Below are positions 26,416-47,553 of a DNA stretch of 54,394 nucleotides, piece after piece. Position 1 is the stretch's first letter; every line of letters begins with the position of its first letter. Made by a program: the position numbers and the translations under genes. The DNA comes from a virus (taxonomy: Duplodnaviria; Heunggongvirae; Uroviricota; Caudoviricetes). The DNA is taken from IMG/VR virus record IMGVR_UViG_2541047847_000004; one strand, 5' to 3'. The notes under the pieces are model-generated. The model was not told the DNA's origin. It saw only the letters and a program-made list of their open reading frames with translations, and searched no databases.

Positions 26416-26600
26416 ACAACCTCCTTTTTAACTGATATGGGGTTATATAATGTGTTTCAGTACAAGTAAATAAAAACCCGCTCAACAGCGGGTTCGTGAA
26501 AATTATCAACGGCAGACATACAAAGCCCATCGTTGAGAAAATCTTATCCATATTTTTTGAAAAATGCAAGCTTCATGTCGCCATCTTCGGCGAAAATCAC

Positions 26601-27359
26601 TTATCTCGTCACCTTTCTCAATTGTGTTTCAGCATATGCTTCTTCCTGCCAGCACTTTGTTACCAGTTTATCAATGACGTCTGCATATCCTTTGTACCAC
26701 TGATAATCAGTCAGGTCTGGAACCAGCTTCTGGACATGACGTCGTGCCAGTGTAGTTGGTAAACGGCTAAACCGGTTTCCATTGCAACGCCCACAAATCT
26801 TATAAACAGGCGTGCCATGAAGCCGGGTCCTTTTTTCATCCAGGACAATACCTTTACCCTTACACCCTCTGCACGCTGTGCTGACTTCTCCCTTACCATG
26901 ACAATGCTGGCATAGTTCCTTCACCCACTCTTCCTTGATAACAGATTCCCCGCTTCTGGAGTGTTTCACCACCTCGCGCAATACATTATGAAATCCAGTA
27001 CCAGCACAATGCTCACAGCGAGCCTTACTTGCCGCAGACCTGGAATAATCAGCAAAGGCAAAATTCACAAGGTAAGGAATGATCTGTAGCCGGGTTTCTT
27101 CACTCAATTTATTCAATGTCGGGTTATCCAGTGCCATCGCGTAATTGAGCAGACCTTCAATCGCAAACTGAGGATCCTGAACACCAACTTTTGCCAGGAA
27201 TAAGGCAAACCCAAGCGGTGCTTTCGACTGCACCATCCCCTGCGCAGCCATCACATCCGTAATCGTTAAACCACCAGAGCCTGTCGCCGGTGCGTCATCG
27301 CTCAGTTTTGGAGATTTCGGGGAGTAATATTTCGGTAAGGCTTCAAGGTTCATGCTCAT
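26601..27359 (-). CDS. Q: Late-gene antiterminator Q
   Basis: 252 aa with Cys-x2-Cys zinc-binding pairs, located just upstream of the lysis cassette. Confidence 0.75.
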   Translation of the reverse strand: MSMNLEALPKYYSPKSPKLSDDAPATGSGGLTITDVMAAQGMVQSKAPLGFALFLAKVGVQDPQFAIEGLLNYAMALDNPTLNKLSEETRLQIIPYLVNFAFADYSRSAASKARCEHCAGTGFHNVLREVVKHSRSGESVIKEEWVKELCQHCHGKGEVSTACRGCKGKGIVLDEKRTRLHGTPVYKICGRCNGNRFSRLPTTLARRHVQKLVPDLTDYQWYKGYADVIDKLVTKCWQEEAYAETQLRKVTR

Positions 27360-27366
27360 TCTCCAC

Positions 27367-28362
27367 TTACGCCAGTACGCCTATTGCCAGCGCACGATCG
27401 ATAAAACGAAATATCAGCTCCAGCTGGGAACCATACTTCTCTTCAAATGCCACGGTATCCGCATGCAGCTCGTCGTGATGCTTTCTGCACAAAGGCAACA
27501 CAAAGAGGTCATGCGCTTTTGTACCCATTCCCCCCTGACCGTGGCCTATCAGGTGGTGGGGATCATCAGCAGCCTTTCCACAACATGCACACGGCTGTGT
27601 CTTAACCCAGCGTGTGTACTTTTCATTAACCCAGCGGCGACGTTTTGGGCGTAACATAAAAGACTCCGGCGACTCCGGATCCACTTTCAGCGCCAGCACC
27701 TTTTTCGCCTTATCCTGGATGATGCTGGTGGCAGGAACCGAAGGCACAAGGTCACTTTCCCGGGTGACAGACGGCACAACAGGCTTCGGTAATCTCAGTG
27801 CCTTACGGGCTGCACTTTCCGGTAAGGCATCCGCCAGGTCATTACGAATCAGCCACCAGCACAGTTCCGGCATTGTCACAACGTGACTATCATCAAAACC
27901 GAGATCCCGACGCACAACAGACAACACCCAGCGGGCACAGTTATCCGTTGCCATTGATTCCAGCCGTTCCGTGAACTGATCGCGCAGCTGGTTATCGCAG
28001 TGCCAGCACAGACGGATTGCGCCCGGCGCGTGTCGCATTGTTGTCATGTTCTCGCTGTGCCAGTCGGAATGAGGCCACTGGCAGCCTTTTTCACGAAGTA
28101 ACCAGCTTTCAAGACATTCCACGCCACCAGCACGACGGATCACTGCCTCATTGCGGAACACGGCCCGAACGTCAGGATCATCCGCCAGCGGTTGTGATGC
28201 CGCCGGAACAGCACCACTGGCGAAAGATGAATAACGTTCCGGCTCAGGCTCCAGCAGGACACGCCCCTGCATAAACAGGGGCATCAGCTCTGAACCTGGT
28301 CTGAACAATACGATCCCCATACGCGGGGCAATTTCAGGGGTCAGTAGTGCTCTCACGGTCAC
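27367..28362 (-). CDS. DUF968-type phage protein
   Basis: 331 aa; C-terminal Cys/His cluster CACCGK...HHLIGHG...CRKHHDELH. Confidence 0.55.
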   Translation of the reverse strand: MTVRALLTPEIAPRMGIVLFRPGSELMPLFMQGRVLLEPEPERYSSFASGAVPAASQPLADDPDVRAVFRNEAVIRRAGGVECLESWLLREKGCQWPHSDWHSENMTTMRHAPGAIRLCWHCDNQLRDQFTERLESMATDNCARWVLSVVRRDLGFDDSHVVTMPELCWWLIRNDLADALPESAARKALRLPKPVVPSVTRESDLVPSVPATSIIQDKAKKVLALKVDPESPESFMLRPKRRRWVNEKYTRWVKTQPCACCGKAADDPHHLIGHGQGGMGTKAHDLFVLPLCRKHHDELHADTVAFEEKYGSQLELIFRFIDRALAIGVLA

Positions 28363-28363: not shown

Positions 28364-29173
28364 TCAATGAACGGTATCGAGCAGCTTTAACAGCTCAGGG
28401 AATCGGGATTCGAAGAAATGCGGCTGCGTCTCACGCGGATTTGCGGGACTGGTGATGTTCTTGCCGAACATGCAGCCTTTCGCCGTCAGCGACCAGAATT
28501 TTTTGATGTTGTTAATCGCGGTACGGCTGTATCGTTCGCGCTGCTCGACGATCCCCAGTTTCACCATCTGGTGATATGCCTGATTAGCCGTCAGGCGGAT
28601 ACCATACTGCTTCAGCAGTGCACTCAGTGACAGCGTGGGGCGGCTTGAGCCATCAGGCGCGTCAGCAGGAGCATCAATGGCATAGCGCGGTGCCAGATTC
28701 GGTAAGCCAACAGCCTCCTGGAGTTTCTGACAGGCACCAAGCACTGAAGAGTTAGACAGGTTTAACTCCCGGCGCATAAAGTCCAGCAGGATCACGCCAG
28801 CCTGCATCTTGTCAGCAGCCTGCCCGGATAATTTTTCCGGTGCGCTGGTTACCATATCGAAAGTACGGATCACCTTCAGATGGAATGACGGGCTGATCCA
28901 CATTGCATAGGCATACACCAGTTCTTTGCAGACATACGTCCCCTGGTTATTTCCGCCATTAATGACGCTAACTGGTTGATTTTGTTCCAGAGGCGGAATT
29001 CCACCCTCGGTGAAAAGTTGTTCAATCAATTCACAGGTTTGCTTATTGGAGAGCCAGTATTTCGGGCGGTTTTTTTGTTCTCCCCCGGCTGCCCTGTGCA
29101 GATCGTTCAGGCTGTAACGCCCATAAGCATCACGACGAACTTCAATACCATCAATAACCATCAGATTATTCAT
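28364..29173 (-). CDS. KilA-N domain protein
   Basis: N-terminal ...IDGIEVRRDAYGRYSLNDLHRAAGG...KYWL resembles KilA-N DNA-binding domain. Confidence 0.5.
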   Translation of the reverse strand: MNNLMVIDGIEVRRDAYGRYSLNDLHRAAGGEQKNRPKYWLSNKQTCELIEQLFTEGGIPPLEQNQPVSVINGGNNQGTYVCKELVYAYAMWISPSFHLKVIRTFDMVTSAPEKLSGQAADKMQAGVILLDFMRRELNLSNSSVLGACQKLQEAVGLPNLAPRYAIDAPADAPDGSSRPTLSLSALLKQYGIRLTANQAYHQMVKLGIVEQRERYSRTAINNIKKFWSLTAKGCMFGKNITSPANPRETQPHFFESRFPELLKLLDTVH

Positions 29174-29192: not shown

Positions 29193-29582
29193 TCAGGCGG
29201 CTGCACCCGCCGGTTTCTCATACTTACTGATAGTGATCTCGACCTTCCCTTTCGGGATAACCGGTCCCCACTCCACCAGCATTCTTTTCACCTGTCTGTC
29301 GTCTTCCCACACACCCGCGTGGGTCAGGGCGTCAAACAGCGCCTTGTTATAGTTGTCCAGATCGCGGATCCGGTTATCCGGAGGAAACAACACGATCTCC
29401 ACTGAAGCAGGTGCCGACGTTGGTTTTGGCAGACGACGTAACTGCTCAACTATTGCTGCGCACGCCGCGCTCTGAAATTTTCGCCCCGCCGCGCTTATCA
29501 GGCTCTTACCAGCAAATGCCCCTTTGTTGGGGTGTCGCCAGTAGGTGTTCACGCTGGGCGGGAAAGGCAGGATCAGCTTCAT
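29193..29582 (-). CDS. rusA: Holliday junction resolvase RusA
   Basis: 129 aa, PFPPSVNTYWR N-terminus and conserved acidic residues typical of RusA. Confidence 0.75.
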   Translation of the reverse strand: MKLILPFPPSVNTYWRHPNKGAFAGKSLISAAGRKFQSAACAAIVEQLRRLPKPTSAPASVEIVLFPPDNRIRDLDNYNKALFDALTHAGVWEDDRQVKRMLVEWGPVIPKGKVEITISKYEKPAGAAA

Positions 29583-29905
29583 ACTTTCAGGCCCCTCTCA
29601 TGTAACCAGTGGGCTGCACGCAGCCTGGCGTTTTCCTCACCGACAAGCAGTGAGCGGATAATCCCGACCGCCTCGCTGTCGTCGTCCTTCACCGCGGTAT
29701 GAAGCGTGATCCCCCGGGCCACACCACGCTTTATCGTGATGACGCCTTTTTTCTCCAGTGCGCGAAGATGCTCCACCGCTGCATTCACCGAACGGTATCC
29801 CAGCATGGTTGCCACCTCCTGATTGGTTGGCGGGAAGCCACGCTCTTTCTGATAAGAAATCAGCATATCCAGCACCTGCTGCTGGCATTGAGTTAACGTC
29901 GTCAT
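29579..29905 (-). CDS. LexA DNA-binding-domain-only protein (no S24 peptidase domain)
   Basis: 108 aa; LTQCQQQVLDMLISYQKERGFPPTNQEVATMLGYRSVNAAVEHLRALEKKGVI closely parallels the LexA N-terminal winged helix. Confidence 0.6.
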   Translation of the reverse strand: MTTLTQCQQQVLDMLISYQKERGFPPTNQEVATMLGYRSVNAAVEHLRALEKKGVITIKRGVARGITLHTAVKDDDSEAVGIIRSLLVGEENARLRAAHWLHERGLKV

Positions 29906-30555
29906 GCCGCCATCTCCCTGACCAGCTTTTCCGCCTGCAGGCGAACCTGCGCCAGAAACGCCTCACCACATGCCTCAAGTTCATCGCGCCCGATGTAGCT
30001 GATTGCCGGTCCCTTCCAGGTCTTGTCGAAAACAGCAATAGCACCAGCGAAGAAAGCGCCTGTCGGCACCTGCTTCTCATCCTTCGGGATAAACCAGGCA
30101 GGCAGTTCAAAACCAATACGCCCGCGAATAAAAGCAATATGATCTGCATCTTCCGGCCACCACACTTCGCTGGTGGCAGCTTTGATCAGGAAAACATAGC
30201 GCCCGCCCTTATCACGCATGGCACTGGCATGCTTCATGATGTAACGCATGCCGGTGATGTATTGCCCCTCATGCTGACTGGCGCGGCTGTATGGGGGATT
30301 TCCAAAGGCAGCACCTTTAAGCTCCGCAAGGCGTTCTGACCAGTCATGCGCCAGCGCGTTGTCTTCCGCCGTGTAATACGCAGCACATTTGGCGTTATCA
30401 CCGTCAGTGAACAGATCCAGAACAAACGGACCAAACAGGGTGTTAATTCCCCAGAAAATGTTGTCCGGCGTGCGCCACTGATCGCCCACTTCCTTCAGTT
30501 CATGGGCTGGTTTGTTCCGCAGTTCCACCAGCTCCTGGCAATATTTATTACTCAT
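29902..30555 (-). CDS. Phage orphan DNA N6-adenine methyltransferase (Dam-like)
   Basis: GNPPYS (DPPY-type) catalytic motif; start set to ATG at 30555 overlapping the upstream stop (TAATG). Confidence 0.7.
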   Translation of the reverse strand: MSNKYCQELVELRNKPAHELKEVGDQWRTPDNIFWGINTLFGPFVLDLFTDGDNAKCAAYYTAEDNALAHDWSERLAELKGAAFGNPPYSRASQHEGQYITGMRYIMKHASAMRDKGGRYVFLIKAATSEVWWPEDADHIAFIRGRIGFELPAWFIPKDEKQVPTGAFFAGAIAVFDKTWKGPAISYIGRDELEACGEAFLAQVRLQAEKLVREMAA

Positions 30556-31049
30556 TAAGCCCCCACGTAATTCCCTGACAGATACCACTCTTCACCTGAT
30601 GCAGCCCGCTTACTGCTTTTCCGTAAACACCGTTCACGACGCGCCAGAAAATTGTTTCGTTCTGGCTGGGAGTAGCTTTCACGGAATGCCGCCATCCACA
30701 CCGTTGCAGCACGACGGTATAAGCCCCTGGACTCCAGTTCTTCCGCCTGGCGGGTCAGGCACAAAATCACCCGGGGATCGTTAGTGCCGACATAGAAATT
30801 GCGCACAGGTCTGGTTTCACGAACTGGTTGTGGTTCCGGCTCCTGCGCTCTCTCAGTCAGGCGTGGGAAATGTCTGCGTGTATCTCCTTCACAACGGTGA
30901 GCCACACGCCCACTCTGACGTAACTTGCTTGCTGACTGCAGAACGCGCTGCCGTGAGTAACCTGCAAAAGCATCCGCAATGTCTCCGGAAGTACAGCCCG
31001 GATGGGCTTCAATGAATTTCTGAACGTCATTCAAAAGACTCATGATCAC
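30555..31049 (-). CDS. PerC-family (Pch-like) transcriptional regulator
   Basis: C-terminal ...AEELESRGLYRRAATVWMAAF resembles the PerC signature (LE..GLWRRAA..W); assignment from memory. Confidence 0.45.
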   Translation of the reverse strand: MIMSLLNDVQKFIEAHPGCTSGDIADAFAGYSRQRVLQSASKLRQSGRVAHRCEGDTRRHFPRLTERAQEPEPQPVRETRPVRNFYVGTNDPRVILCLTRQAEELESRGLYRRAATVWMAAFRESYSQPERNNFLARRERCLRKSSKRAASGEEWYLSGNYVGA

Positions 31050-31987
31050 CCCCTGAATCCTGCCGGGATCTGGCTGTAGTCCACGTTGTCGTAACTGGCT
31101 TTGAAGTACGGGTCTTCGCGTTTTTCGGTGTACGTGCTGACGGACGGCGATAAGCGCAGGGAAAGCTCATCCCATTTTTCCCGCAACTTCGACGGGCTGA
31201 GCACGTTACGGCACCAGAACGGATCGCGGCTGACGCGGCTGTACATCTCGCAGATTTGTTTGTGAGTACGACCATCCTGCACACACATCAGGCGAATTTC
31301 GTTTGCCCATGCTGTCCAGTTAGGTTCTTTGGGACGAACCACCTCGCCGTCACATTCGGCGGCCTGCTCGTACAGGGCGATGATTTTTTTCCAGAGCCAC
31401 TGTGCGCAGGTCAAATCATCCTGCGTCCCCCACTGGCGCTTTTTAGGGCTGAATACAACCGCATCAGGATGGCGAGTTAAAAAATCCTGTTCATCCGTCT
31501 GCGTGTCCGGTTGCGAAGCGTCCGGACGAGAAGGTTTTTTATCTGACGGATCATGTTTTGATTTTACTGACGGATCCCCGCCAGATTCTGACGGGTGAAA
31601 ACCCGCTTTTTTGCCAGATTTCGACGCATCAAATTTTGACGGGTCAGATTTTGATGCGTCAGATTTTGACGGGTCAGAATCTGACAGTTGAGAAAATGCC
31701 GCTGCCTGAAGCTTCGCAACGTTAAGCTGATAAACATTCGACGCATTGCGGTTACCCTGGCGACGCGCCTTACGCGTTAACCAGCCTTCTGCTTCCAGCC
31801 GTGCGATAGCCGTTCTGACGGTACTCATCCCCGCGCCAATCTGACGGGCAATAGTTTCAATTGATGGCCAGCACACACCTTCGTCATTACTGAAATCAGC
31901 CAGGCGGGCCATAATTGCCACGCTGGATAATTTCATGCCTGACGCAGCGCAACCATCCCATACATAGCCGGTTAATTTAGTGCTCAT
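31046..31987 (-). CDS. Replication initiator (lambda O-like) with internal iterons
   Basis: 313 aa, HTH-like N-terminus, internal Asp/Ser/Lys repeat region encoded by 15-bp iterons. Confidence 0.65.
   Translation of the reverse strand: MSTKLTGYVWDGCAASGMKLSSVAIMARLADFSNDEGVCWPSIETIARQIGAGMSTVRTAIARLEAEGWLTRKARRQGNRNASNVYQLNVAKLQAAAFSQLSDSDPSKSDASKSDPSKFDASKSGKKAGFHPSESGGDPSVKSKHDPSDKKPSRPDASQPDTQTDEQDFLTRHPDAVVFSPKKRQWGTQDDLTCAQWLWKKIIALYEQAAECDGEVVRPKEPNWTAWANEIRLMCVQDGRTHKQICEMYSRVSRDPFWCRNVLSPSKLREKWDELSLRLSPSVSTYTEKREDPYFKASYDNVDYSQIPAGFRG
31540..31690. repeat. Origin-like iteron array inside the O-like gene
   Basis: About eight copies of a ~15-bp unit (consensus agattttgacgggtc), five of them contiguous at 31616-31690. 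Confidence 0.6.
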
Positions 31988-31996: not shown

Positions 31997-32335
31997 CTAT
32001 TTCCCTGAATTTACGACGAAACTGTTCGAGCGGGCTAAAGCACTCATGCTCATAGCCTTCACGGAGGTAGATAACCCGTTGTGTTTCCGGCTCCCAACGA
32101 ATGACTCTGACGGGCACTCCGTAGTGATCTTTGAACCAGCGGTTAACTTGTCGCAAAGGACTGTCTCCTTCTGCCGGTTGAAATCCCCCACAGCCCACTC
32201 AGCAAAGCTGTGGGTTACAATTTCCCTGTCACCTGGTACATTTACTGCATAGCAATACTCCACCTTCGCTTTTCCACCCGGTACAGGAAGCGCAATCAGT
32301 TGCGAGCGACGGTAGTGTGTTGTTAAACTGTTCAT
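31997..32335 (-). CDS. Hypothetical protein (YmfM-like by size and position)
   Basis: 112 aa; start overlaps upstream stop (coupled). Competes with an overlapping 73-aa ORF in another frame. Confidence 0.35.
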
Positions 32336-32889
32336 GCGTTAGTTTCTCCACAACCAGAAGCAATCGACGCCACGACGCCCGGAGCTGCACACTCGCGGGC
32401 GTCATTACTTTCTGAAACGCAAAAAATTTTGTAGACAAGTGCTGCATGCTCCTGCAGCTTCGAAATTGAGAGGTACAGCTCGTCGTTAATTGCTGTCTTC
32501 TCATGCGGTTCCACTACACCGTCTTCGATTGCCGAACGAATCTGTTTTGAATAACTGCCGATCTGTTCAATGACTTCCAGTAAACGCTGGTTAATATCGG
32601 CATTGTCCACATCCTCGACGTCAGGAAGAGACACAAAGACGCCATTTGCAGACTGCGCCACAGCGTCAGCAATGAAGTGAGTGCCACCAGCACGTTGTAA
32701 AATCATTGCCCATCCCAGCGGGAAAATCTGATCGCCATCGGCACGAAGGCGGTTAAATAATGCGTTCTCTGTTACATCCAGCCACTCAGCAGCTTCAGCG
32801 TAACCCCCCGGCAACGCCGCGATAGTTTTTCTGACAGCTTTCACGTACCACTCAGGCTGTTTTTCCACTTTCCAGTGATGATTACCCAC
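32332..32889 (-). CDS. Early regulatory-region protein (YmfL-like)
   Basis: 185 aa directly downstream of cro-like gene. Confidence 0.5.
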
Positions 32890-33142
32890 GGCTTACCTCC
32901 TGTTCCTGTGGTTTAAACCCATTCTGGTTTTGGCTAGATTGAAAACGTGCCGGATAAAGAATCTGCATTTCGCTGATTTCACCCTTAAAAAAATTGGCCA
33001 GACGTTCTGCAAGATCGATAGATGGAATTTGTTCCAGTCTTTCAATACGACTCAGCGTCGCTGGATTGACCTGAACGCCAGCAGCAACATGCTGCAAAGT
33101 AAATCCGTGCGCCTTACGCACATTCCGTAATGGTGATTGCAT
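32882..33142 (-). CDS. Cro-like HTH regulator (XRE family)
   Basis: 86 aa, HTH GFTLQHVAAGVQVNPATLSRIE; divergent from cI. Confidence 0.7.
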   Translation of the reverse strand: MQSPLRNVRKAHGFTLQHVAAGVQVNPATLSRIERLEQIPSIDLAERLANFFKGEISEMQILYPARFQSSQNQNGFKPQEQEVSRG

Positions 33143-33239: not shown

Positions 33240-33932
33240 ATGAACATAGGAAACCGAGTCAGACAACTTCGCCAGGCGAAGAACATGAAAATCGCCGATC
33301 TCGCTGAAGCAATAGGAGTGGATGCGGCGAATATCTCACGCCTGGAAACAGGTAAGCAGAAACAATTCACTGAACAAGCCCTGAGTAATATTGCCAGGAG
33401 CTTAGGTGTTGATATTGCTGATCTCTTTACCTCAGACTTCAAAAGTAATACTGTATGTAAAAACAGTATTAGTGAGGATGTTGCGCAGGTGAAGGATGTA
33501 TTCCGTATTGAAATGCTGGATGTCAGTGCCAGTGCGGGAAATGGCCTTATCCAGGGCGGTGATGTCATTGATGTGATTCATGCCATTGAATACAGAACTG
33601 ATAATGCTGTATCGATGTTTGGCGGACGGCCAGCCAATCACATTAAAGTTATCAACGTTCGTGGGGACAGTATGTGTCCAACCATTGAGCCAGGAGATCT
33701 CATCTTCGTTGATGTCAGTATCAATCAGTTTGATGGAGATGGTATCTATGTATTTGGTTTTGATGATAAAATTTATGTCAAACGACTGCAAATGATACCT
33801 GACAAACTACTGGTGATTTCTGATAACCAGATTTACCGTGAATGGGGAATTACCAGCGAAAATGAACACCGGTTTATGGTCTTTGGAAAGGTCTTAATCA
33901 GCCAGTCACAAACCCTTAAGCGACACAATTAA
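33240..33932 (+). CDS. CI-like repressor (HTH + S24 LexA-type autopeptidase)
   Basis: 230 aa; N-terminal HTH, C-terminal VRGDSMCPT...KR Ser/Lys dyad. Confidence 0.85.
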   Translation: MNIGNRVRQLRQAKNMKIADLAEAIGVDAANISRLETGKQKQFTEQALSNIARSLGVDIADLFTSDFKSNTVCKNSISEDVAQVKDVFRIEMLDVSASAGNGLIQGGDVIDVIHAIEYRTDNAVSMFGGRPANHIKVINVRGDSMCPTIEPGDLIFVDVSINQFDGDGIYVFGFDDKIYVKRLQMIPDKLLVISDNQIYREWGITSENEHRFMVFGKVLISQSQTLKRHN

Positions 33933-37762: not shown

Positions 37763-38895
37763 CAATCAGGAAACACCGCCAGGGAGAAACGATCAATATA
37801 ACTTTCACCTACAAAGGAGTTAGATGTCGTGAGCCGCTTTCCAATCTGGAAGTAACACCAAAGAACATTAAATACGCCGAGCGTACACTCGGCGAAATCC
37901 ATAATAAGATCGAAAGGGGAACATTCATTTATGCAGAATATTTTCCCCGTTCTGCTCGTTTGAAAATTTTTGGTAATGCTGCTGCAGGCAAAACGGTAAA
38001 GGTGTACCTGGACGAATATCTTGAAATCTGCGAAACAAGAAAACTTTCACCCTCTACGATTGGTGGCTATAAAAAATGCCGTAGTGCGTTAGCCTCACTT
38101 CACATTTGCCCTGCAAGTGAATTAACACCAGCAACCCTGAAAGCGTGGATTCAAAGCCAGAAAACAACCTTAAAAACCATTCGCAACCAGTTATCTTTCC
38201 TACGGTCAGCACTTGATGAAGCCGTGACCGATGGGGTACTTCAAATTAACCCCGTATCGTTAGTAACAGCTTCGCGCTACCAAAGTGATAAGTCAGAAGC
38301 AGAAAGCAGCTATGTGGTTGATCCGCTATCACCAGCAGAAGTTGATGCATTACTAGCAGCAGCCGGAAACAAACAATGGGAAAATCTGTTCCGGTTCGCC
38401 ATACATACAGGCCTGCGTAGTTCTGAATTATGTGCCCTACGATGGCATGATATCGACTTTGTTGGAAAAACAGCCCATGTTCAGAGCGCAAGTGTTGTCG
38501 GAGTTATCAAAGGAACAAAGACAAAAGCCGGTACCCGTAAAGTTGAACTGACTGAAGAAGCAATGTTGGCGTTGATAAACCAGAAGCCATTTACATTCAT
38601 GAAGGATGCTACTGTCTTTGAAGATCCAAAGACCAATAAACCCTGGGCAAGTGCTGATGCAATTAGGAAAAAAGCATGGGTGCCAACATTGCGAAAAGCA
38701 GGTATTCGTTACAGAAACCCATATCAAACCAGGCATACATTCGCCACCAGCCATATCAGCCGGGGAGCAAACCTGTTTTGGCTTGCGGCTCAAATGGGCC
38801 ATAAAGGGCCTGAAATGTTATTCAGGCACTATGGACAATACTTGAAAGAGTATGATGGGAGGGCAAGTATCAAGGATAAAAAGGCTTTATTTTAA
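37723..38895 (+). CDS. int: Tyrosine integrase (prophage)
   Basis: 390 aa; C-terminal R...H..R...Y catalytic pattern (HTFATSHISRGANLF...LGHKGPEMLFRHYGQY). Confidence 0.85.
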   Translation: MGQTKLLKLPRGVTIRKHRQGETINITFTYKGVRCREPLSNLEVTPKNIKYAERTLGEIHNKIERGTFIYAEYFPRSARLKIFGNAAAGKTVKVYLDEYLEICETRKLSPSTIGGYKKCRSALASLHICPASELTPATLKAWIQSQKTTLKTIRNQLSFLRSALDEAVTDGVLQINPVSLVTASRYQSDKSEAESSYVVDPLSPAEVDALLAAAGNKQWENLFRFAIHTGLRSSELCALRWHDIDFVGKTAHVQSASVVGVIKGTKTKAGTRKVELTEEAMLALINQKPFTFMKDATVFEDPKTNKPWASADAIRKKAWVPTLRKAGIRYRNPYQTRHTFATSHISRGANLFWLAAQMGHKGPEMLFRHYGQYLKEYDGRASIKDKKALF

Positions 38896-39504
38896 GTCAT
38901 TATGCCAATCGTCTACTGTTTGAAACCAAATTTTTAACCTTTGCATAAAGGTACGATCCTTTTTGGGAGGGTGGTACCTTTGAAAAGAAGTATGTAACGC
39001 TTCGATAACTCCCATACAAGCATCAATTACTTCTTGTGCTTTAACCGGGCGATCGGTATCTGAAAGCTTGTGAGCGACCTCACAATCCAGAGTTGCTTTC
39101 TCTAGTACAGATGAGAACACCTCGTCAGGTATATACAGTCCTCTGCTTTCCAAAATGCAAATCAGTTTGGAAACTTGTTGAGCTTTAGCCAAGATAGTTA
39201 ACAAGTATGAAACAGAAGCCTTTGTTCTATCCTTTTGCAACCTTAACAATCGATGCTTTGATGCTCTAATTTTAGGTTGAGTTGTCTGACTGAGCCAATA
39301 GTTAGAAGAAATATCAGAAATTTCAATAACTAACTTTGAAATAGCATCAATAATTGATTTCGATTCAGAACGTGTCGCCAGTTTTACAGAATTATTGTAC
39401 GCAACTCGCCATCCAATGAAAACTAAGCAGACGCTAACTACTGTGATACACCACGAATACTGTCCTATTTGTGCTACTAATGACATTGGTTCCGTACTGA
39501 TCAA
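38887..39504 (-). CDS. Membrane-anchored protein, third gene of GHKL operon
   Basis: 205 aa, single N-terminal TM helix (WCITVVSVCLVFIGW) then largely helical soluble part; 10-nt gap to upstream gene; 3' end overlaps int 3' end. Confidence 0.45.
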   Translation of the reverse strand: MISTEPMSLVAQIGQYSWCITVVSVCLVFIGWRVAYNNSVKLATRSESKSIIDAISKLVIEISDISSNYWLSQTTQPKIRASKHRLLRLQKDRTKASVSYLLTILAKAQQVSKLICILESRGLYIPDEVFSSVLEKATLDCEVAHKLSDTDRPVKAQEVIDACMGVIEALHTSFQRYHPPKKDRTFMQRLKIWFQTVDDWHNDLK

Positions 39505-39514
39505 CTATCGCCTC

Positions 39515-39841
39515 TTATACTCTTTCTGGTTGTGCTAAATCAATAAATTTATCAATCTGTTCTTTGTAGAACGGAACATCACTTTTTATAATCAAACGTG
39601 CTTTAACGTTGGCTTTAGGTATCCCTTCCTTACGGATGAGACCTCCAAACGCCTCTTCTAAGAAAGAGGAACCAACACCCAGTGCTATACCGCGAAAATC
39701 AACCACAATCTCCTGTTCAGTACCCTTCAGCGCAGGCACCAAAAACTCTCTACGAAATCTTTCCGCACTGTGTGGGCTATCCGTTGTGTAACGTCCGAAA
39801 GGTGTTCTGGAGAACTCCTTCGCTATGACGATATTTCTCAT
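39515..39841 (-). CDS. Small soluble protein, possibly STAS-like (DUF4325-type)
   Basis: 108 aa; 4-nt gap from upstream GHKL gene; family guess from memory of sequence pattern, unverified. Confidence 0.4.
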   Translation of the reverse strand: MRNIVIAKEFSRTPFGRYTTDSPHSAERFRREFLVPALKGTEQEIVVDFRGIALGVGSSFLEEAFGGLIRKEGIPKANVKARLIIKSDVPFYKEQIDKFIDLAQPERV

Positions 39842-39845
39842 AAAA

Positions 39846-40757
39846 TCATCTCCTGGGAACCAGCGACCATTGTAGTAAAGTACCCGGTATGTACTCAGCT
39901 AGCTTCTCACATCGAGGACTACTGTCATTAGAATTATAGCTATAACGAGCCCTTCCTGTTAGTATCAGAAGTGTCTCATTATCCTCACAACCTGCCCCAA
40001 TAGGTCTCTTGATATCTTCAGAGCCATTTCCCCGTCCGGAACCAACAAAGCGGGATTCCCCTACTAACATAGCTCTTTCCACAGAAGATACTTCGTTTTG
40101 AATGCTATGACCATCACCATTAGGCACGAAACTTCTATAAATCCCCAATCCAAGGTCACAAACGATAAAAACGACTTTATTTTCATCACGATTGAACCAA
40201 GCGCACTGCCACCATCGTTTACCTTTGAGAAGCTGAATATCTGACTCGAACCCCTCATCTTCATACGCATGATGAGAAACATTGAGCAAAGCTTCACTAA
40301 TCGCTGTCAGCAGTAAGCCTAACTGTTCATTATTAAGCAGAGCACTTTTCTGCAGCATGAGTACTGTTTCAACAATATGCTCGTAAGGTTCGACAGCTGA
40401 CTGAAAGTATCGTTCCTCCCTCGTAAGTGCATTCAGTTTCTCTTCTGTGCCAGCAAGCAAAGCACGAGCAAGTCCAGTACCAACGATCCATCTATGCCCA
40501 GATGGGTTATCATCCTTTTTAGGCCATTTAAAACGTATAAAATTAGGGTCCCGGGTTAAAAATTGAGCTCTATTTACTATGGCAAAGAACAGTACCGATG
40601 CCGCAGCTGAGGCAAATTTTACCTTGGACAAATCAACTATAACTCGACCTTTATTTTTTACTCCAATCGATTCAATCGAGTTGATGAAGTTCAATGTCCC
40701 AGCCCTAGAATCATCTGAGTAAATGCAAAATTTGCTTGGGGGTACCAGTATGGTCAT
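39846..40757 (-). CDS. GHKL-superfamily ATPase (histidine-kinase-like ATP-binding domain) with unassigned N-terminal region
   Basis: N-box SEALLNVSHHAY, G1 box VCDLGLGI, G2 box GSGRGNG in order in the C-terminal half; no HisKA/dimerisation domain or receiver visible. Confidence 0.55.
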   Translation of the reverse strand: MTILVPPSKFCIYSDDSRAGTLNFINSIESIGVKNKGRVIVDLSKVKFASAAASVLFFAIVNRAQFLTRDPNFIRFKWPKKDDNPSGHRWIVGTGLARALLAGTEEKLNALTREERYFQSAVEPYEHIVETVLMLQKSALLNNEQLGLLLTAISEALLNVSHHAYEDEGFESDIQLLKGKRWWQCAWFNRDENKVVFIVCDLGLGIYRSFVPNGDGHSIQNEVSSVERAMLVGESRFVGSGRGNGSEDIKRPIGAGCEDNETLLILTGRARYSYNSNDSSPRCEKLAEYIPGTLLQWSLVPRR

Positions 40758-41125: not shown

Positions 41126-42319
41126 GTGGCACGTACAACACGCCCTCTTACTAACACTGAACTATCACGTGCTAAAGCAACTGAAAAGGATCTAACGCTA
41201 CATGATGGTGATGGGCTTTTTCTACTCATAAAAACGAACGGAAGGAAGTTGTGGCGTTTCCGATACCAGAAGCCTGTATCAAAACAGAGAACCATGATTA
41301 GTTTAGGAACGTTCCCCGCCCTATCTCTGGCTGAGGCCAGAAACGTGCGTGCTGAGTATCTTTCCTTATTAGCCCGGGGTATTGATCCACAAACATACAG
41401 TAAGCAAGTCTCAGAACATCAACAGATTGCGATTGATAGTATTTTTTCAAAAGTTGCCACAAATTGGTTTGCCATAAAAAGCAATAACGTCACACCTGAT
41501 TATGCAAAGGATATATGGCGATCCTTAGAGAGGGACATTTTCCCTGCTATCGGTGAGATTCCTGTTCAGGAAATAAAAGCCCGCACATTAATTGAAGCCC
41601 TAGAGCCAATTAAAGCTCGTGGGGCACTTGAGACTGTTCGTCGTTTAGTACAACGTATTAATGAAATTATGATTTATGCTGTTAATACTGGTCTGATAGA
41701 TGCTAACCCTGCTTCAGGCATTGGTATGGCATTTGAAAAACCTAAAAAACAGCACATGCCAACGCTTAGACCTGAAGAATTACCGAAACTCATGCGTTCA
41801 ATAACAATGTCTAATTTATCTATTCCAACTCGTTGTTTGATTGAATGGCAACTCTTAACACTTGTACGCCCTGCAGAAGCTTCCAATGCAAAGTGGATAG
41901 AGATCGATTTCGAAGCTAAACTATGGATAATACCAGCCAATAGAATGAAGGCAAAGCGGGAACATATTGTTCCATTATCACTTCAGACATTAGATATTCT
42001 TGAAATTATGAAGCCAATCAGTTCACATCGAGAATATATTTTTCCTAGCAGGAATAACCCCAATCAACCAATGAACAGTCAGACGGCAAATGCAGCCTTA
42101 AAGCGCATCGGTTATGGTGGTAAGTTGGTTGCACACGGACTGCGTTCGATAGCAAGTACAGCAATGAATGAAGCTGGTATAAATCCAGATATTATCGAAG
42201 CAGCACTTTCCCATTGTGATAAAAATGAGGTTAGAAGAGCATATAATCGAACAACCTACTTGGAACAAAGAAAAGAGCTTATGAATTGGTGGGGTAGTTT
42301 CATTTCAAAAAACAAATAA
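41126..42319 (+). CDS. int: P4-type tyrosine integrase
   Basis: 397 aa from GTG; N-terminus MARTTRPLT...LHDGDGLFLLIKTNGRKLWRFRY typical of P4-family integrases next to ssrA. Confidence 0.9.
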   Translation: MARTTRPLTNTELSRAKATEKDLTLHDGDGLFLLIKTNGRKLWRFRYQKPVSKQRTMISLGTFPALSLAEARNVRAEYLSLLARGIDPQTYSKQVSEHQQIAIDSIFSKVATNWFAIKSNNVTPDYAKDIWRSLERDIFPAIGEIPVQEIKARTLIEALEPIKARGALETVRRLVQRINEIMIYAVNTGLIDANPASGIGMAFEKPKKQHMPTLRPEELPKLMRSITMSNLSIPTRCLIEWQLLTLVRPAEASNAKWIEIDFEAKLWIIPANRMKAKREHIVPLSLQTLDILEIMKPISSHREYIFPSRNNPNQPMNSQTANAALKRIGYGGKLVAHGLRSIASTAMNEAGINPDIIEAALSHCDKNEVRRAYNRTTYLEQRKELMNWWGSFISKNK

Positions 42320-42329
42320 GGATATAGTG

Positions 42330-43445
42330 ATGAATAATAAAGATTTTCCATGCAAAGCCTCAAATATCTATGATAAAAATATAAATTTTTTATTTGGCTC
42401 AGGCTCCTCTGCTTCATATATTCCTACTCTCTATCTAGATAAAAACACTACTTATGAAACATTACTTACACATGAGGATTGTGAGGGTGTCAAGGACTTC
42501 ATATTATGTTCTTATTTCAATAATATCATTAGAAAAACATTTTGTGTTAAACCTAATAGTGAAGACAAAAAATATAATTCTACTTTAGCAAACTATAGCT
42601 ACTTTATTGATGAACTAATCAAATTATTAGAGAAAAAAGGGGCAAATCAAATAAGGCGAGCGAATATTTTTACAACAAATTATGATCTTTTTTTCGAAAC
42701 TGCGGCTGATGATATTTTAAATAATAAAACATTTCATTTCAATGACGGTGGTCTAGGTTTCAAAAGCCGGAAATTGAACATTAGTAATTTTCATATTACT
42801 GCTTGGCATCAAGGTACGCATGATATGTACAAACATGAAATTCCAACAGTAAACTTAATAAAAATGCATGGTTCTGTTTCTTGGTGTAGAGATATTAATG
42901 AAACGATTAGTATTAATTACACTCAAGAAGAACCACCAAAGTTTAGACTAGATACAAAAAAAGACATTAATGATTTAGTCACCACCTTAAACGAAACAAG
43001 CGATAATCTCGTTAGTTATTTAAATTTATCTACAAGCGATCAAGAAACACTTCAAGAATTTAAATCTTATTACAACAACTTAGCTATAGTTAGCCCAACT
43101 AAAGAAAAATTTTCTGAAACTGTTTTTCAACAACATTATTACCAATGTTTACGATTGCTAAGTTATGAATTAGAGAAACCACAAACTGTATTAATTTGTT
43201 TTGGTTTTTCTTTTCAAGATGAACACATACGTGAGATTATAAAAAGATCATTAAGTAACCCTACTCTTAAGGTCTTTGTTTTTTGCTACTCAAAATCCAG
43301 CATGGAAAGTATACAGCACATTATCAATGACCAACGAATAACCTATATTCTTCCTATAGAAGATGATCATACAATTTCATTTAAACCGTTTATAGATAGA
43401 GTATTTAGATCTGAACACGGAGATTGGATTACATGGAAGAACTAA
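42330..43445 (+). CDS. SIR2-family NADase-like protein (defence pair with HerA)
   Basis: FLFGSGSS (Rossmann GxGxS), TTNYD and KMHGSVSW motifs characteristic of SIR2 domains; AT-rich; start at ATG 42330. Confidence 0.7.
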   Translation: MNNKDFPCKASNIYDKNINFLFGSGSSASYIPTLYLDKNTTYETLLTHEDCEGVKDFILCSYFNNIIRKTFCVKPNSEDKKYNSTLANYSYFIDELIKLLEKKGANQIRRANIFTTNYDLFFETAADDILNNKTFHFNDGGLGFKSRKLNISNFHITAWHQGTHDMYKHEIPTVNLIKMHGSVSWCRDINETISINYTQEEPPKFRLDTKKDINDLVTTLNETSDNLVSYLNLSTSDQETLQEFKSYYNNLAIVSPTKEKFSETVFQQHYYQCLRLLSYELEKPQTVLICFGFSFQDEHIREIIKRSLSNPTLKVFVFCYSKSSMESIQHIINDQRITYILPIEDDHTISFKPFIDRVFRSEHGDWITWKN

Positions 43446-45205
43446 TTGTTGGTAATGTTACCCAAATAAAGGGCACAACAGTAAGGGCCAAAATCAATCA
43501 TGACTTTTTTCAGTCAACATACTTTCATAAAGGTAAAATACTACGAGGTATCTCTATAAATGAATTTGTTTTGATTAAAAAAGGTTATCACGATATCGTC
43601 GGAAAGATTATTGGTGAAGAAATTGTTGAAAACATCAATATTAGAAGCGATGAAATTGAACAAAAAAAATATGACCGTTTTGTAGAACTGAATATTTTAG
43701 GGTATTTTTTTGAGAGTTCATTTTATTCCGGTATAAAATTTTTACCAATGATAAATGACAGCTTACACTTAATTTCAGACGAGAAGATATCAGAAATATA
43801 TAAGTTTAGCAAAAACACTAAAGCACCTTTAATAAACATAGGGAAATCTATGTTAGAGGAGTTGCCAATTAACATACCAATAAATGGTATTTTTAATTCA
43901 CACATAGGCATATTTGGAAACACTGGAAGTGGCAAGTCCAACACTCTTGCAAAACTTTATCACTCTCTAATAAACCTTATAACAACAAAAGAAAGAGTTA
44001 TATCAAAATCAAGTTTTGTTTTGATTGATTTTAATGGTGAATACAGCACATTTGCTACGTCATTTCCAGATTTGTGCGAACAAGTCAATCTCAACACAAA
44101 GAATTCCGGTGATAAACTAACTTTCACTGATGATGAATTTTGGGATGATGAATTATTATCGGTATTGTTTTCTGCAACTGAAAAAACTCAAAAGCCATTT
44201 CTTAGTCATTTAATTAAAAATAGAGAAAAATATAATGGTAAATTGGAGGATTACTTACAAACAACTATCCACAGTATGTTTTCTCCTAATCCACACAGGG
44301 AAACAATAAATTTATTAAAAAGCCTTGCCCCTTACTTTTCAGAGAGAGCACAGGGTAAAATACTTGAAGAGTTATCACAATTCTCATGGCATTCTGGGCA
44401 AAATAAGTATTTGCACTCAAAATACAACTTCATTGATAAAATGGAAGATGCTTTACAGGCTTTAGATGCAACATATAAATCCAAGTTTAAGTTAAACAGC
44501 GTTTTTGATGAAGTTGCAATCCGATCTATTCTACAACTAATTAATTCAGTATCACGTAATTATGTACAATATGATCATATATATCCGCTAATTAATAAAA
44601 TAACGGCAATGACTCCTGCCCTATCCAAAGTAATTAATATCAGAAACGAAACAAAAAATAAAAAACCTATATATATAGTGTCATTAAAAGAGTGCAATCA
44701 ATTAATCAAAAAAACCATTCCAATGATGCTTGCAAAATGTTCATTCTTAGAGCACAAGTCATCTAAAAATACAAAGGAAAGCTTCCACCTAATTATAGAT
44801 GAAGCACACAACATATTGTCTGAAACATCTGTCAGAGAGGCGGAAACATGGAAAGATTATAGGCTTGAGTTATTTGAGGAAATAATAAAAGAGGGAAGGA
44901 AGTTTGGGTTCTTCGTTACAATTTCGAGTCAACGACCTTTTGACATCTCTCCCACAATTGTTTCCCAACTTCATAATTATTTTATTCATCGATTAGTGAA
45001 CGAAAATGATTTGTTTTTGTTAAAAAATACTTTAAGCACCCTTGATGCGGCATCAAGATCACTAATTCCAACACTTCCTCCTGGTGGGTGTATAGTTTCA
45101 GGAACAGCTTTCCACACCCCATTACTTGTTCAAATCGACAGATTAGCTGAGGAAAATGCTCCTAACAGCGATACTCTTGATTTAGAAAAATTGTGGGATA
45201 TTTAA
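43433..45205 (+). CDS. herA: HerA-like ATPase
   Basis: Walker A GNTGSGKSN and Walker B HLIIDEAHN; overlaps SIR2 stop; start at ATG 43433 (track TTG 43424). Confidence 0.75.
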   Translation: MEELIVGNVTQIKGTTVRAKINHDFFQSTYFHKGKILRGISINEFVLIKKGYHDIVGKIIGEEIVENINIRSDEIEQKKYDRFVELNILGYFFESSFYSGIKFLPMINDSLHLISDEKISEIYKFSKNTKAPLINIGKSMLEELPINIPINGIFNSHIGIFGNTGSGKSNTLAKLYHSLINLITTKERVISKSSFVLIDFNGEYSTFATSFPDLCEQVNLNTKNSGDKLTFTDDEFWDDELLSVLFSATEKTQKPFLSHLIKNREKYNGKLEDYLQTTIHSMFSPNPHRETINLLKSLAPYFSERAQGKILEELSQFSWHSGQNKYLHSKYNFIDKMEDALQALDATYKSKFKLNSVFDEVAIRSILQLINSVSRNYVQYDHIYPLINKITAMTPALSKVINIRNETKNKKPIYIVSLKECNQLIKKTIPMMLAKCSFLEHKSSKNTKESFHLIIDEAHNILSETSVREAETWKDYRLELFEEIIKEGRKFGFFVTISSQRPFDISPTIVSQLHNYFIHRLVNENDLFLLKNTLSTLDAASRSLIPTLPPGGCIVSGTAFHTPLLVQIDRLAEENAPNSDTLDLEKLWDI

Positions 45206-45225
45206 TATCGCTACGCGCAGTGCTT

Positions 45226-45262
45226 TCCCCGCCTCGCCCGCACGCTTTGCGGGGCGGTTTTA
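45226..45262 (+). terminator. Intrinsic terminator after herA
   Basis: ccccgc...gcgggg stem followed by cggtttta; two further GC-rich hairpins at 45286-45309 and 45340-45374. Confidence 0.5.
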
Positions 45263-45402
45263 ATGCAGTTGCACTGACACGCTCAGACCGCGCCGGGAAT
45301 GGCGCGGTCTGCAGAAAATGAGGCAGGGAAACGCATGCAAAGCCATGCACCTTATCGATGCATGGCTTTTTTCAGTAAAAACAGGCGGATTTTCGGGAAA
45401 TT

Positions 45403-45975
45403 TTACACAGACTGACGTGATGCCAGTTGCGCACTTTTACGCGAAAAAATCATGTTCTGCGCAGGGGTAAATTTTTCACGGCTGTCGTCCACCGAAGCCG
45501 CGTCAGGCCTGAATCCGATGGTCGTTAAAATGTCGCTATCCTGTGCGGAATAATTAATTTTTTCCCCCTTCGCAAGCCAGGACAGAAGGGCTTCACGCAG
45601 GGCATCTGTGGCACGCTGTATGGCACAGTTTCGGGCAATGGCCGTCAGCTCACTGTAGCCCATCAGCTCCGGTGCCAGTGCCGCCGCCAGTGCTGTGCCG
45701 TGCTGCTGCATAAAATCATTCAGCCGGTCGCGGATGCTGATGTGCTGAACGGCTTCATGCGAACGAATATAACGACCAGCGGCCTGATTCACCTGCCATT
45801 TTCTGACTTCGATAATATTGCGTAATTCGTCCAGGCGACTGACGTTTCTGCCTTCTCCTGACAGAAGCCGCAGATATTCCTGTTCGGCCGCTGCCAGCTC
45901 ATTTTTGCGTTGCAGCCATGCTGCTTTGTTATTCTGACAGGTGTCAAAGGCCTGCTGTAAGGCTGTGCTTTCCAT
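45403..45975 (-). CDS. psu: Polarity suppression protein Psu
   Basis: 190 aa, same length and position as P4 Psu in the sid-delta-psu block. Confidence 0.75.
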   Translation of the reverse strand: MESTALQQAFDTCQNNKAAWLQRKNELAAAEQEYLRLLSGEGRNVSRLDELRNIIEVRKWQVNQAAGRYIRSHEAVQHISIRDRLNDFMQQHGTALAAALAPELMGYSELTAIARNCAIQRATDALREALLSWLAKGEKINYSAQDSDILTTIGFRPDAASVDDSREKFTPAQNMIFSRKSAQLASRQSV

Positions 45976-46048
45976 CGTTATCTCTTTCTCATCATGCTGA
46001 AGAATAAAAATACGGTGTGCGGCGACGGCCGGTGTTAACCGGCAGCCC

Positions 46049-47280: not shown

Positions 47281-47449
47281 TTTCCGGCTCCTCGTCACTT
47301 CAGGTTAAGAAAATTGTGACGTACACCGGACAACAACACGACGCATTGCAGATGTGCCAGCCCTGACACAGGAGACTCATCCTCAGACCGGCAAGCCAGG
47401 AAAAGGTCGCAGGAAAAACCGGCTTACTGTTTGTTTTTTTATATTTTAC

Positions 47450-47553
47450 TGTTCACCTCTGTTCACCATAAGAAAAAAGACAAGTAATACAGTAAGTTAA
47501 ATGGTGAACAATCGCAGTAATGACTGTTCACCGTCTGTTCACCACTGTTCACC
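47450..47553. repeat. TGTTCACC iteron cluster (P4 crr/ori-type alpha-binding sites)
   Basis: Six TGTTCACC octamers (five direct, one inverted) within ~100 bp. Confidence 0.6.

Follow-up and report, generated by a model that had tools for sequence, protein, structure and literature searches.

An intact dam gene for an N6-adenine DNA methyltransferase lies on the minus strand of the virus record IMGVR_UViG_2541047847_000004, the whole 54,394 nucleotides of which were analyzed here (the window), and its start codon overlaps the stop codon of a gene with a PerC-like signature. This arrangement raises two questions: (i) do the two genes form a functional unit, as a sequence-only reading of the DNA had proposed, and (ii) does the methylase act on the DNA of the phage, or does it alter gene expression in the host? 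We consider it about 75% probable, taking the explanation as a whole, that the region (Table 1) is the replication/nin-like segment of a temperate phage of the SfV / KpLE1 (CPS-53) / e14 type that is integrated into the chromosome of Escherichia or Shigella, and that the methylase serves GATC methylation during lytic growth.

Table 1. Genes and signals of the early region, with positions in the window
Feature	Position	Strand	Basis and details
CI-type prophage repressor, divergent	33240..33932	+	ORF; PT109 orthologue "XRE family transcriptional regulator"; SfV cI in the same place
Cro-like HTH gene, first of the early rightward operon	32882..33142	-	ORF and position; PT109 orthologue annotated as HTH protein; SfV cro in the same place
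CII-like (YmfL / Phage_CP76) regulator	32332..32889	-	Pfam Phage_CP76, 8e-14
O-like replication initiator (HTH_36 / DnaD_N-like)	31046..31987	-	Pfam HTH_36, 4e-11; phrog_391 "replication initiation O-like", 1e-135
yfdN-type PerC-family gene	30555..31049	-	164 aa; GTG start, TAA stop
dam, orphan phage N6-adenine DNA methyltransferase	29902..30555	-	654 nt, 217 aa; intact
LexA N-terminal DNA-binding-domain protein (LexA-N)	29579..29905	-	108 aa; Pfam LexA_DNA_bind, 2.9e-19, positions 1-65 of 65
RusA Holliday-junction resolvase	29193..29582	-	Pfam RusA, 1.3e-14
KilA-N domain protein	28364..29173	-	Pfam KilA-N, 4.6e-27
DUF968 / putative HNHc_6 protein	27367..28362	-	Pfam DUF968, 4.5e-81; family of SfV orf45
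Q-type antiterminator, end of the early operon	26601..27359	-	Pfam Antiterm, 3.8e-54
Intrinsic-terminator-like hairpin 3' of Q, tR' position	26474..26495	-	9-bp stem with 5 GC pairs, then a T-run

Family, orphan status, and known relatives of the methylase

The longest open reading frame at dam begins with GTG and spans 29902-30588; RefSeq and the SfV annotation use the ATG at 30555. The range of 29902-30557 that had been proposed for the methylase agrees at its start and is 2 nt off at its end, since the upstream stop codon begins at position 30557. The product matches the Pfam Dam profile (PF05869) with an E value of 9.8e-46 and 155.9 bits, against a curated cut-off of 28.1 bits, over profile positions 3-167 of 169, and the NCBIfam equivalog TIGR01712 ("phage_N6A_met") with 255.5 bits, against a cut-off of 97 bits, over all 165 positions (1-165). 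The REBASE-derived PADLOC model MTase_II matches it over its full length (6e-157). An AFGNPPYS motif is present, with motif IV (NPPYS) at residues 86-90, and a DxWxTP motif occupies residues 25-30; in an alignment with the enzymes of VT2-Sa, T1, HP1, phiEt88, SeF2, and Kp4884-1 and a Shewanella orthologue, the invariant columns are D25, W27, T29, P30, L46, D47, and N86-P87-P88-Y89-S90. With the methylase as query, no relative turned up among PDB sequences. On sequence grounds, membership in the phage N6-adenine-methyltransferase family is unambiguous and far beyond chance, and the earlier description of a Dam-like methyltransferase with a GNPPYS motif holds.

A type II restriction-modification system has the cognate endonuclease gene adjacent to the methylase gene. 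No restriction endonuclease adjoins dam, the Pfam and PADLOC content of its neighbors being YfdN, LexA-N, RusA, KilA-N, DUF968, O-like, and Q. The DUF968 / HNHc_6 protein is not a restriction enzyme; it belongs to the family of SfV orf45 and has no PADLOC match. The sole restriction enzyme in the window is R.EcoRII (1-1209), which forms a complete EcoRII-type pair (1-2719) with its own C5-cytosine methylase (1244-2719), about 27 kb from dam and past the late genes. Since no endonuclease adjoins dam and the only one in the window is already paired with a C5 methylase, dam is an orphan methylase, as had been suggested from the lack of a cognate endonuclease nearby.

The dam product is identical at 213 of 217 positions (98%), at equal length, to that of SfV dam (orf41, AAL89443.1, GenBank U82619.2), the four substitutions being conservative and all outside the catalytic motifs, and the 170 nt upstream of dam are 97% identical between the two phages. 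The genes of SfV orf39-orf45 also follow in identical order (replication gene, YfdN-type orf40, dam, LexA-N-like orf42, RusA, KilA-N, DUF968, and Q), whereas the prophage here has different immunity genes and a different insertion site. In RefSeq, the two genes go by the names "phage N-6-adenine-methyltransferase" and "yfdN: PerC family transcriptional regulator", and roughly one-third to one-half of the complete E. coli genomes carry them. The yfdN label is also that of K-12 CPS-53 (KpLE1), with its genes yfdO-yfdN-yfdM, and some sources use the name "CPS-53 (KpLE1) prophage protein". Loci of the K-12 type have the order seen here (O-like fragment, yfdN, dam), but there the methylase match is cut short at 89 residues and only part of the O-like gene remains, whereas here both of these genes are full length. 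By homology, therefore, the dam/yfdN pair is already known and annotated, and it belongs to a very common E. coli/Shigella prophage.

More distant relatives are M.EcoVT2Dam (VT2-Sakai orf32), T1 Dam, and HP1 Dam, which share with the enzyme here the Pfam/TIGRFAM family and the DxWxTP, LD, and NPPYS motifs. All are small orphan enzymes with no separate recognition domain, encoded in an early or nin-type phage region; the position differs in VT2-Sakai, where dam lies between ninB and ninE, while here it lies beyond the replication gene. M.EcoGV of O104:H4, reported to be a GATC "Dam homolog", was considered as a possible equivalent. Identity with M.EcoMIV of ST131 EC958 was considered and rejected, as that enzyme carries PF02086.

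The early operon and the yfdN/dam junction

From Cro onward, the operon runs CII-like, O-like, YfdN, Dam, LexA-N-like, RusA, KilA-N, DUF968, Q, and terminator. It therefore has the composition of a lambdoid early rightward (PR to Q) operon, with a divergent repressor/Cro pair, a CII-like gene, replication and nin-type genes, Q, and a terminator-like hairpin. The same gene order is found in SfV, PT109, UTI89, and phiSTEC1575-Stx2k. The prophage carries genes for the head, tail, lysis, and integrase and thus appears to be complete. The gene that follows dam encodes a LexA-N protein without an S24 peptidase domain (TIGR00498 matches at positions 1-91 of 203, below cut-off), which aligns to residues 2-69 of E. 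coli LexA, with a recognition helix reading RSVNAAVEHL compared with RSPNAAEEHL. LexA boxes were considered as its targets and rejected: a single perfect CTGT-N8-ACAG, no more than expected by chance, lies inside the CI-like open reading frame.

Upstream of dam, the yfdN-type product matches the Pfam PerC profile (PF06069) with an E value of 1.7e-8 and 35.1 bits (curated cut-off, 22.6 bits), in residues 100-151 only (profile positions 5-56 of 90). The proposed PerC/Pch-like signature is thus borne out by the profile search. Homologues of the protein carry precomputed PF06069 assignments and are named PerC family, and it is 40% identical over 52 aa to Sakai PchE, with the common signature AEELE-x-G-x-YRRAA-x-W. 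An AlphaFold2 (AF2) model (mean pLDDT of 76) predicts a winged helix at about residues 1-62, a disordered linker at 65-85, and a three-helix PerC domain at 92-150, and a Foldseek search matches winged helices of the ArsR/SmtB/MarR type over about 60 residues. PerC of EPEC, Pch of EHEC, and the YfdN-type protein have the PerC signature in common, and the last is likewise prophage-borne. However, PchE of EHEC (ECs_1588; 90 aa) is a small single-domain protein, essentially the PerC domain alone, whereas the 164-aa YfdN-type protein adds a winged helix and a linker. The genetic settings also differ: pchE sits in Sp7, a small non-lambdoid ("untypable") element, and the yfdN-type gene in a phage early operon. 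Most probably, the YfdN-type protein serves the phage as an accessory early regulator.

At the minus-strand junction (GGGGCTTAATGAGTA), the TAA stop of yfdN and the ATG of dam share one base, which confirms the TAATG overlap noted earlier. One explanation of this arrangement would be that YfdN and Dam form a dedicated module, in which YfdN controls dam, or YfdN binding depends on Dam methylation, and translational coupling fixes the stoichiometry. Apart from the overlap itself, the adjacency of the two genes in SfV, in Stx2 phages, and in thousands of E. coli genomes is consistent with such a module, and among 45 loci from other genera, about 9 keep a YfdN homologue upstream of the Dam orthologue at a Dam identity of 74-81%. 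However, stop/start overlaps occur at 6 of the 11 junctions of the early operon: the yfdN GTG start overlaps the O-like stop (GTGA), the ATG of the LexA-N gene overlaps the dam stop (ATGA), and the ATG of the RusA gene overlaps the stop of the LexA-N gene. Each gene of the pair also occurs without the other. In SfIV, the YfdN gene is joined straight to the LexA-like gene, with dam cleanly absent (PMC3851460); K-12-type loci (L051/L052) keep yfdN beside a truncated dam; and at a coverage of at least 80%, 2547 E. coli genomes have yfdN and 1725 have dam, a surplus of about 820 yfdN-bearing genomes. Conversely, in about 11 of the 45 loci from other genera, the replication gene directly abuts the Dam orthologue, and in YeP2 and Kp4884-1, the genes upstream of dam are unrelated. 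The 156-aa protein upstream in YeP2 was considered as a divergent YfdN and rejected, having no BLASTP similarity and no Pfam match. In the loci compared, the YfdN gene always lies directly downstream of the O-like gene; therefore, yfdN tracks the replication gene rather than dam. Taken together, these comparisons make a dedicated module extremely improbable, and the coupling that had been proposed for the methylase and the PerC-like gene is not specific to them. Rather, on this evidence, the one-base overlap is one instance of the tight gene packing seen throughout the operon, and yfdN and dam are neighbors without being a functional couple.

Probable GATC specificity and proposed lytic role

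The prophage contains 140 GATC sites (4.0/kb), which is approximately the mononucleotide expectation, and no avoidance of GATC was seen in it. At this frequency, the substrate of a GATC methylase is plentiful and not avoided. Of the relatives, M.EcoVT2Dam is reported to target GATC (PMC6602927). The identity of the dam product to the biochemically characterized GATC enzymes (VT2-Sa, T1, and HP1) is 25 to 31%, and to M.EcoVT2Dam 28 to 31%. The 98%-identical SfV gene was deposited as dam, and orf-41 was reportedly confirmed by experiment as a Dam methylase in the work on SfV by Allison et al. (2002, J Bacteriol 184:1974). Close Dam orthologues are confined to Enterobacterales and Shewanella, plus one contig labeled Chryseobacterium, and phages of Vibrio and Aeromonas carry remoter ones; these host lineages are Dam-positive.

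These last points argue against the possibility that the enzyme has another or a relaxed adenine specificity and is a broad anti-restriction device like M.EcoGII and Hia5. Several observations could nevertheless be read in its favor: (i) the identity to the GATC-specific enzymes is only 25 to 31%; (ii) the SfV-type subfamily exceeds the VT2 and HP1 enzymes by about 40 aa in length and has its own insertion of 10 residues after NPPYS and a different, inserted segment after the GRIxF motif, in regions that could contact DNA; (iii) orthologues have variable unannotated C-terminal extensions or are fused to C5-methylase or PAPS-reductase-like domains, which suggests functional diversity; and (iv) non-specific prophage adenine methylases do exist. 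Kinship of dam to these non-specific enzymes (Hia5/Hin1523 and M.EcoGII) was rejected, since they belong to the DpnM/T4Dam-like (DPPY) class and the beta-class N6_N4_Mtase family and not to PF05869 (PMC3299994, PMC5778455). A specificity other than GATC is therefore unlikely.

From its sequence and setting, the role of Dam is most likely GATC methylation of replicating phage DNA in lytic growth. In the lysogen, the CI-type repressor would silence dam. On induction or infection, the gene would be expressed with delayed-early timing, alongside those for the replication initiator and RusA, and its product would methylate GATC on the fast-replicating phage DNA, behind which the scarce host Dam would lag. 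The progeny DNA would exit fully methylated. In the next host, it would then be safe from GATC endonucleases that are sensitive to methylation, and it would also escape MutH and SeqA, which nick or bind DNA where GATC is unmethylated or hemimethylated. In these ways, a second GATC methylase would benefit the phage in a Dam-positive host.

Possible effects on the host and significance

An influence of the pair on host genes or on virulence, which the sequence-only reading had raised as an option, is not indicated. Both genes lie within a Cro-to-Q operon that the CI-type repressor presumably keeps silent in the lysogen, and a consensus scan found no sigma-70-like promoter upstream of dam. The GenBank record of SfV annotates a putative -35/-10 pair for dam within orf40; however, these hexamers are weak, and the -35 annotated there (TTGCGC) reads TGGCGC here, degraded by one change. 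An internal dam promoter was therefore rejected, although, given the SfV annotation, some repressor-independent transcription of dam may occur. In addition, GATC methylation by host Dam is already about 99.9% complete (PMC6602927), and in E. coli lysogens, other prophage methylases have been described as inactive or not transcribed (PMC4659465, PMC5778455). The lack of an added methylation motif in the lysogen, which had been proposed as a refutation, would not discriminate, because no new motif is expected from a fully functional enzyme that is either repressed or specific for GATC.

As for the PerC-like protein, EHEC prophages do encode members of the PerC family that control genes of the host: PchABC act on ler, and PchE acts on csgD and flagella (PMC6265319, PMC7369912). 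Reports of LEE activation are confined to the short Pch proteins of group 1 and do not extend to PchD or PchE (PMC6265319), and YfdN is longer and has two domains; a virulence activator is thus not the indicated reading of the PerC-like gene. In K-12, yfdN was deleted before Pch proteins were tested, and the activity of yfdN itself was not reported there (PMC5931665).

Together with the SfV-annotated hexamers, the EHEC precedents are what could speak for a methylase that is expressed in the lysogen and controls host genes epigenetically, perhaps jointly with the PerC-like protein, with consequences for virulence or other host phenotypes. Given the repressor-controlled operon, the degraded -35, the near-complete methylation by host Dam, the inactivity of other prophage methylases in lysogens, and the finding of Dam and YfdN each without the other, this is very unlikely. 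There is also a small chance that either YfdN acts on induction as a host-directed regulator of adhesion, biofilm, or LEE genes, in the manner of PchE or PchABC, or the SfV-type Dam is broader than GATC.

The dam/yfdN module entered GenBank with the genome of SfV in 2002 and is routinely named by RefSeq, and it matters little beyond correct annotation. Two points are of modest interest, namely the target of the very common YfdN-type PerC proteins and the gain from a second Dam-type methylase in a Dam-positive host, and answers on either would not overturn the current understanding of these phages.

The dam gene and its product

The dam gene and its upstream neighbour, yfdN, both lie on the minus strand. 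The longest open reading frame for dam, with a GTG start, spans 29902-30588, while the ATG at 30555, as used by RefSeq and by the related Shigella phage SfV, gives a 654-nt gene and a 217-aa protein that includes AFGNPPYS. At the junction (minus strand, GGGGCTTAATGAGTA), the upstream TAA (30557-30555) and the dam ATG (30555-30553) have one base in common, preceded by a G-run at the position expected for a ribosome-binding site. The TAATG overlap described in the sequence-only reading is therefore present, with the shared base at 30555, but the end it gave to the feature, 30557, is where the upstream stop codon begins and not the gene start. Such overlaps between stop and start codons are found at 6 of this operon's 11 junctions, so this one is nothing special.

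Profile searches agree with the proposed Dam-like methyltransferase: PF05869 (Dam) matched over nearly the full profile (Pfam, E=9.8e-46), the NCBIfam equivalog model TIGR01712, "phage N-6-adenine-methyltransferase," scored 255.5 bits (cut-off, 97), and a PADLOC model for Type II methylases, exactly 217 positions long, matched end to end (6e-157). No solved structure was detectable by sequence search. In an alignment with the VT2-Sakai, T1, and HP1 Dam enzymes and more distant relatives, D25, W27, T29, P30, L46, D47, N54, and N86-S90 were invariant; overall identity to the three named enzymes was only 25-31%.

The feature is a known and ordinary one. When the upstream protein was used as a tblastn query, the search led to SfV (U82619.2), whose record lists orf39 (replication), orf40, dam ("DNA adenine methylase," 654 nt), orf42, orf43 (junction endonuclease), orf44, orf45, and Q, exactly the gene order found here, with 213 of 217 Dam residues identical. 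RefSeq names the pair "phage N-6-adenine-methyltransferase" and "yfdN: PerC family transcriptional regulator" in many E. coli genomes, PT109 and UTI89 among them, and a trio that includes this pair recurs in Stx2 phages, for example phiSTEC1575-Stx2k. In the work on the SfV genome (Allison et al., 2002), orf-41 (dam) was reportedly confirmed by experiment as a Dam methylase.

YfdN and its relation to dam

The upstream gene had been read as PerC-like, and the PerC profile indeed matched above cut-off (Pfam), over residues 100-151 only. Residues 96-147 share 40% identity with residues 1-52 of Sakai PchE (ECs_1588, 90 aa), with the signature AEELE-G-YRRAA-W in common, and homologues in a large protein database are enterobacterial, 66-99% identical, and named PerC family. 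An AlphaFold model built from 21 homologues (mean pLDDT, 76) has a confident N-terminal domain of three helices and a beta-hairpin (residues 1-62), a disordered linker (65-85), and a confident C-terminal three-helix domain (92-150). Foldseek against the PDB placed the N-terminal domain near ArsR/SmtB, MarR, MepR, and BlaI winged helices (2-3 Å over ~60 residues), with weak E-values of 0.03-0.2. YfdN thus belongs to the PerC family by domain, yet it is of a longer, two-domain type, with an N-terminal domain and linker additional to what PchE has. A sub-threshold match of residues 98-144 to the ANR (AraC negative regulator) family (NCBIfam, 22.8 bits; cut-off, 32) hints at a distant PerC-ANR kinship among small helical regulators.

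The virulence role suggested by the PerC label is not supported for this longer type, as reports of LEE activation concern the short Pch proteins of group 1, and neither PchD nor PchE (PMC6265319). yfdN has been named as the PerC homologue of K-12; in one study it was deleted as a precaution, with no activity reported for it (PMC5931665).

Nor was the proposed coupling supported, and the YfdN-Dam pair is not a unit. In phage SfIV, a replication gene is followed by YfdN and then a LexA-like gene, whose start abuts the YfdN stop; dam is cleanly absent, as the SfIV authors also remark (PMC3851460). Among 5426 complete E. coli genomes, dam was found in 1725 (coverage of at least 80%, with identity reaching 100% in some) and yfdN in 2547, with full-length yfdN in ~820 more genomes than dam; in K-12-type loci (L051/L052), yfdN is kept beside a methylase match that ends after 89 residues. 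Of 45 loci in other genera, whose Dam is 56-82% identical, ~9 have a YfdN homologue before Dam and ~11 an O-like gene directly abutting it; in the rest, neither was detected upstream of Dam. The upstream position is taken by an unrelated 156-aa gene in Yersinia phage YeP2 (70% Dam identity) and by an apparent cytosine-methylase-like ORF in Klebsiella phage Kp4884-1 (65%), and chiviruses and phiEt88 have different neighbours again. Because YfdN directly follows the O-like gene wherever both occur, it goes with the replication gene and not with dam.

Neighbouring elements and orphan status

Feature coordinates in the window
Feature	Position	Strand	Remark
R.EcoRII	1-1209	+	both domains present
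C5 cytosine methylase, Dcm-type N-terminal domain	1244-2719	-	convergent to R.EcoRII
Terminator-like hairpin	26474-26495		after Q
Q antiterminator	26601-27359	-	operon member
DUF968	27367-28362	-	operon member
KilA-N	28364-29173	-	operon member
RusA	29193-29582	-	operon member
LexA-DNA-binding-domain protein	29579-29905	-	operon member
Dam	29902-30555	-	operon member
YfdN	30555-31049	-	operon member
O-like initiator	31046-31987	-	operon member
112-aa ORF and DUF4222-type ORF	between CII-like and O-like	-	operon members
CII-like	32332-32889	-	operon member
Cro-like	32882-33142	-	operon member
CI-type repressor gene	33240-33932		divergent from operon
Satellite integrase	41126-42319		
SIR2 + HerA anti-phage defence pair	42327-45205		satellite cargo; PADLOC HerA 1e-192
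Psu	45403-45975		P4-like satellite
Ogr/Delta-type protein	46049-46549		P4-like satellite
Ash-family protein	48051-48695		P4-like satellite
C4 antisense RNA / isrK	48158-48443		P4-like satellite; Rfam
Alpha-type primase-helicase	49894-52227		P4-like satellite

The orphan label for dam holds. No endonuclease gene lies on either side of it. The window's left end, ~27 kb away, does hold a complete restriction-modification pair of EcoRII type, but this pair is self-sufficient and cytosine-acting, with its own C5 methylase. The window begins at the first base of the R.EcoRII gene, and a GIY-YIG (LEM-3-like) nuclease-domain ORF (3028-3852) lies beside the prophage tail-fibre end.

The 108-aa protein encoded downstream of dam has a complete LexA N-terminal DNA-binding domain (recognition helix RSVNAAVEHL; the E. 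coli LexA helix reads RSPNAAEEHL) followed by a tail of 40 residues, and no S24 peptidase/dimerisation domain. Its gene, translationally overlapped with dam and rusA and kept in SfV (orf42) and SfIV, could encode a non-cleavable LexA mimic acting in lytic growth. The window holds a single perfect LexA box (33451-33466, within the CI-like ORF), no more than chance.

A P4-like satellite (41126-53100, both strands) lies between the prophage and csiD/glaH. A 6.9-kb stretch (46204-53102; GC content, 0.5-0.62), where ~25 GATC sites were expected, has none and coincides with the satellite core genes; the neighbouring prophage has GATC at the expected density. Between the prophage and satellite integrases, two or three minus-strand ORFs (38887-40757), one with a weak histidine-kinase-like ATPase (HATPase_c_2) match, had no PADLOC match; in the UTI89 counterpart, one gene bears the annotation "STAS-like domain-containing protein." The ORFs may be a small cassette of defence or cargo genes at the end of the prophage.

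Expression, specificity, and proposed role

The genes from Cro-like to Q form a single tightly packed operon in a full-looking prophage, with late genes and an integrase also present. A consensus scan found no sigma-70-like promoter upstream of dam, and the −35 annotated in SfV (TTGCGC) reads TGGCGC here. From this we infer transcription of dam from the early promoter, with the gene probably silent in the lysogen and expressed after induction, in agreement with reports that other prophage methylases in E. coli lysogens are untranscribed or inactive (PMC4659465, PMC5778455).

The main uncertainty is specificity. GATC, the reported target of the VT2-Sakai enzyme (PMC6602927), is also the predicted target of this Dam. 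A different or relaxed specificity, for which the distance of the characterised GATC enzymes and the subfamily's own insertions could speak, seems improbable. Comparing motifs between a lysogen and a cured strain would be uninformative, because dam is probably silent and a GATC enzyme would add nothing visible to a Dam-positive host, in which methylation already covers 99.9% of GATC (PMC6602927).

Several orthologues from other genera have C-terminal extensions without counterpart in the E. coli/SfV enzyme, giving ORFs of ~390-480 aa (loci L008, L010, L012-L014, L017, L019, L020, L027, L034, L038, L045, and L046) or ~285-300 aa (L009, L016, L023, L026, and L028). One extension is a ~170-aa module (GFNFWACACAAFGDKEEYTF...) and another a ~70-aa module (WPLEVGLVFNQV...NKLKANINQLWLER), and those scanned had no Pfam match. 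One Serratia locus carries a C5-cytosine-methylase-Dam fusion, and PAPS-reductase-like N-terminal fusions also occur (PHROG 33262, phage cdtI annotation).

Close orthologues occur only in Enterobacterales and Shewanella, bar one contig labelled Chryseobacterium, and Vibrio and Aeromonas phages carry more distant ones. These are Dam-positive lineages, a range in keeping with an enzyme whose product does no harm in them. The prophage's 140 GATC sites (4.0 per kb) show no depletion. As a delayed-early enzyme, Dam would keep these sites methylated as phage DNA outpaces the host Dam, and the methylated progeny DNA would be protected against methylation-sensitive GATC endonucleases and MutH or SeqA action.
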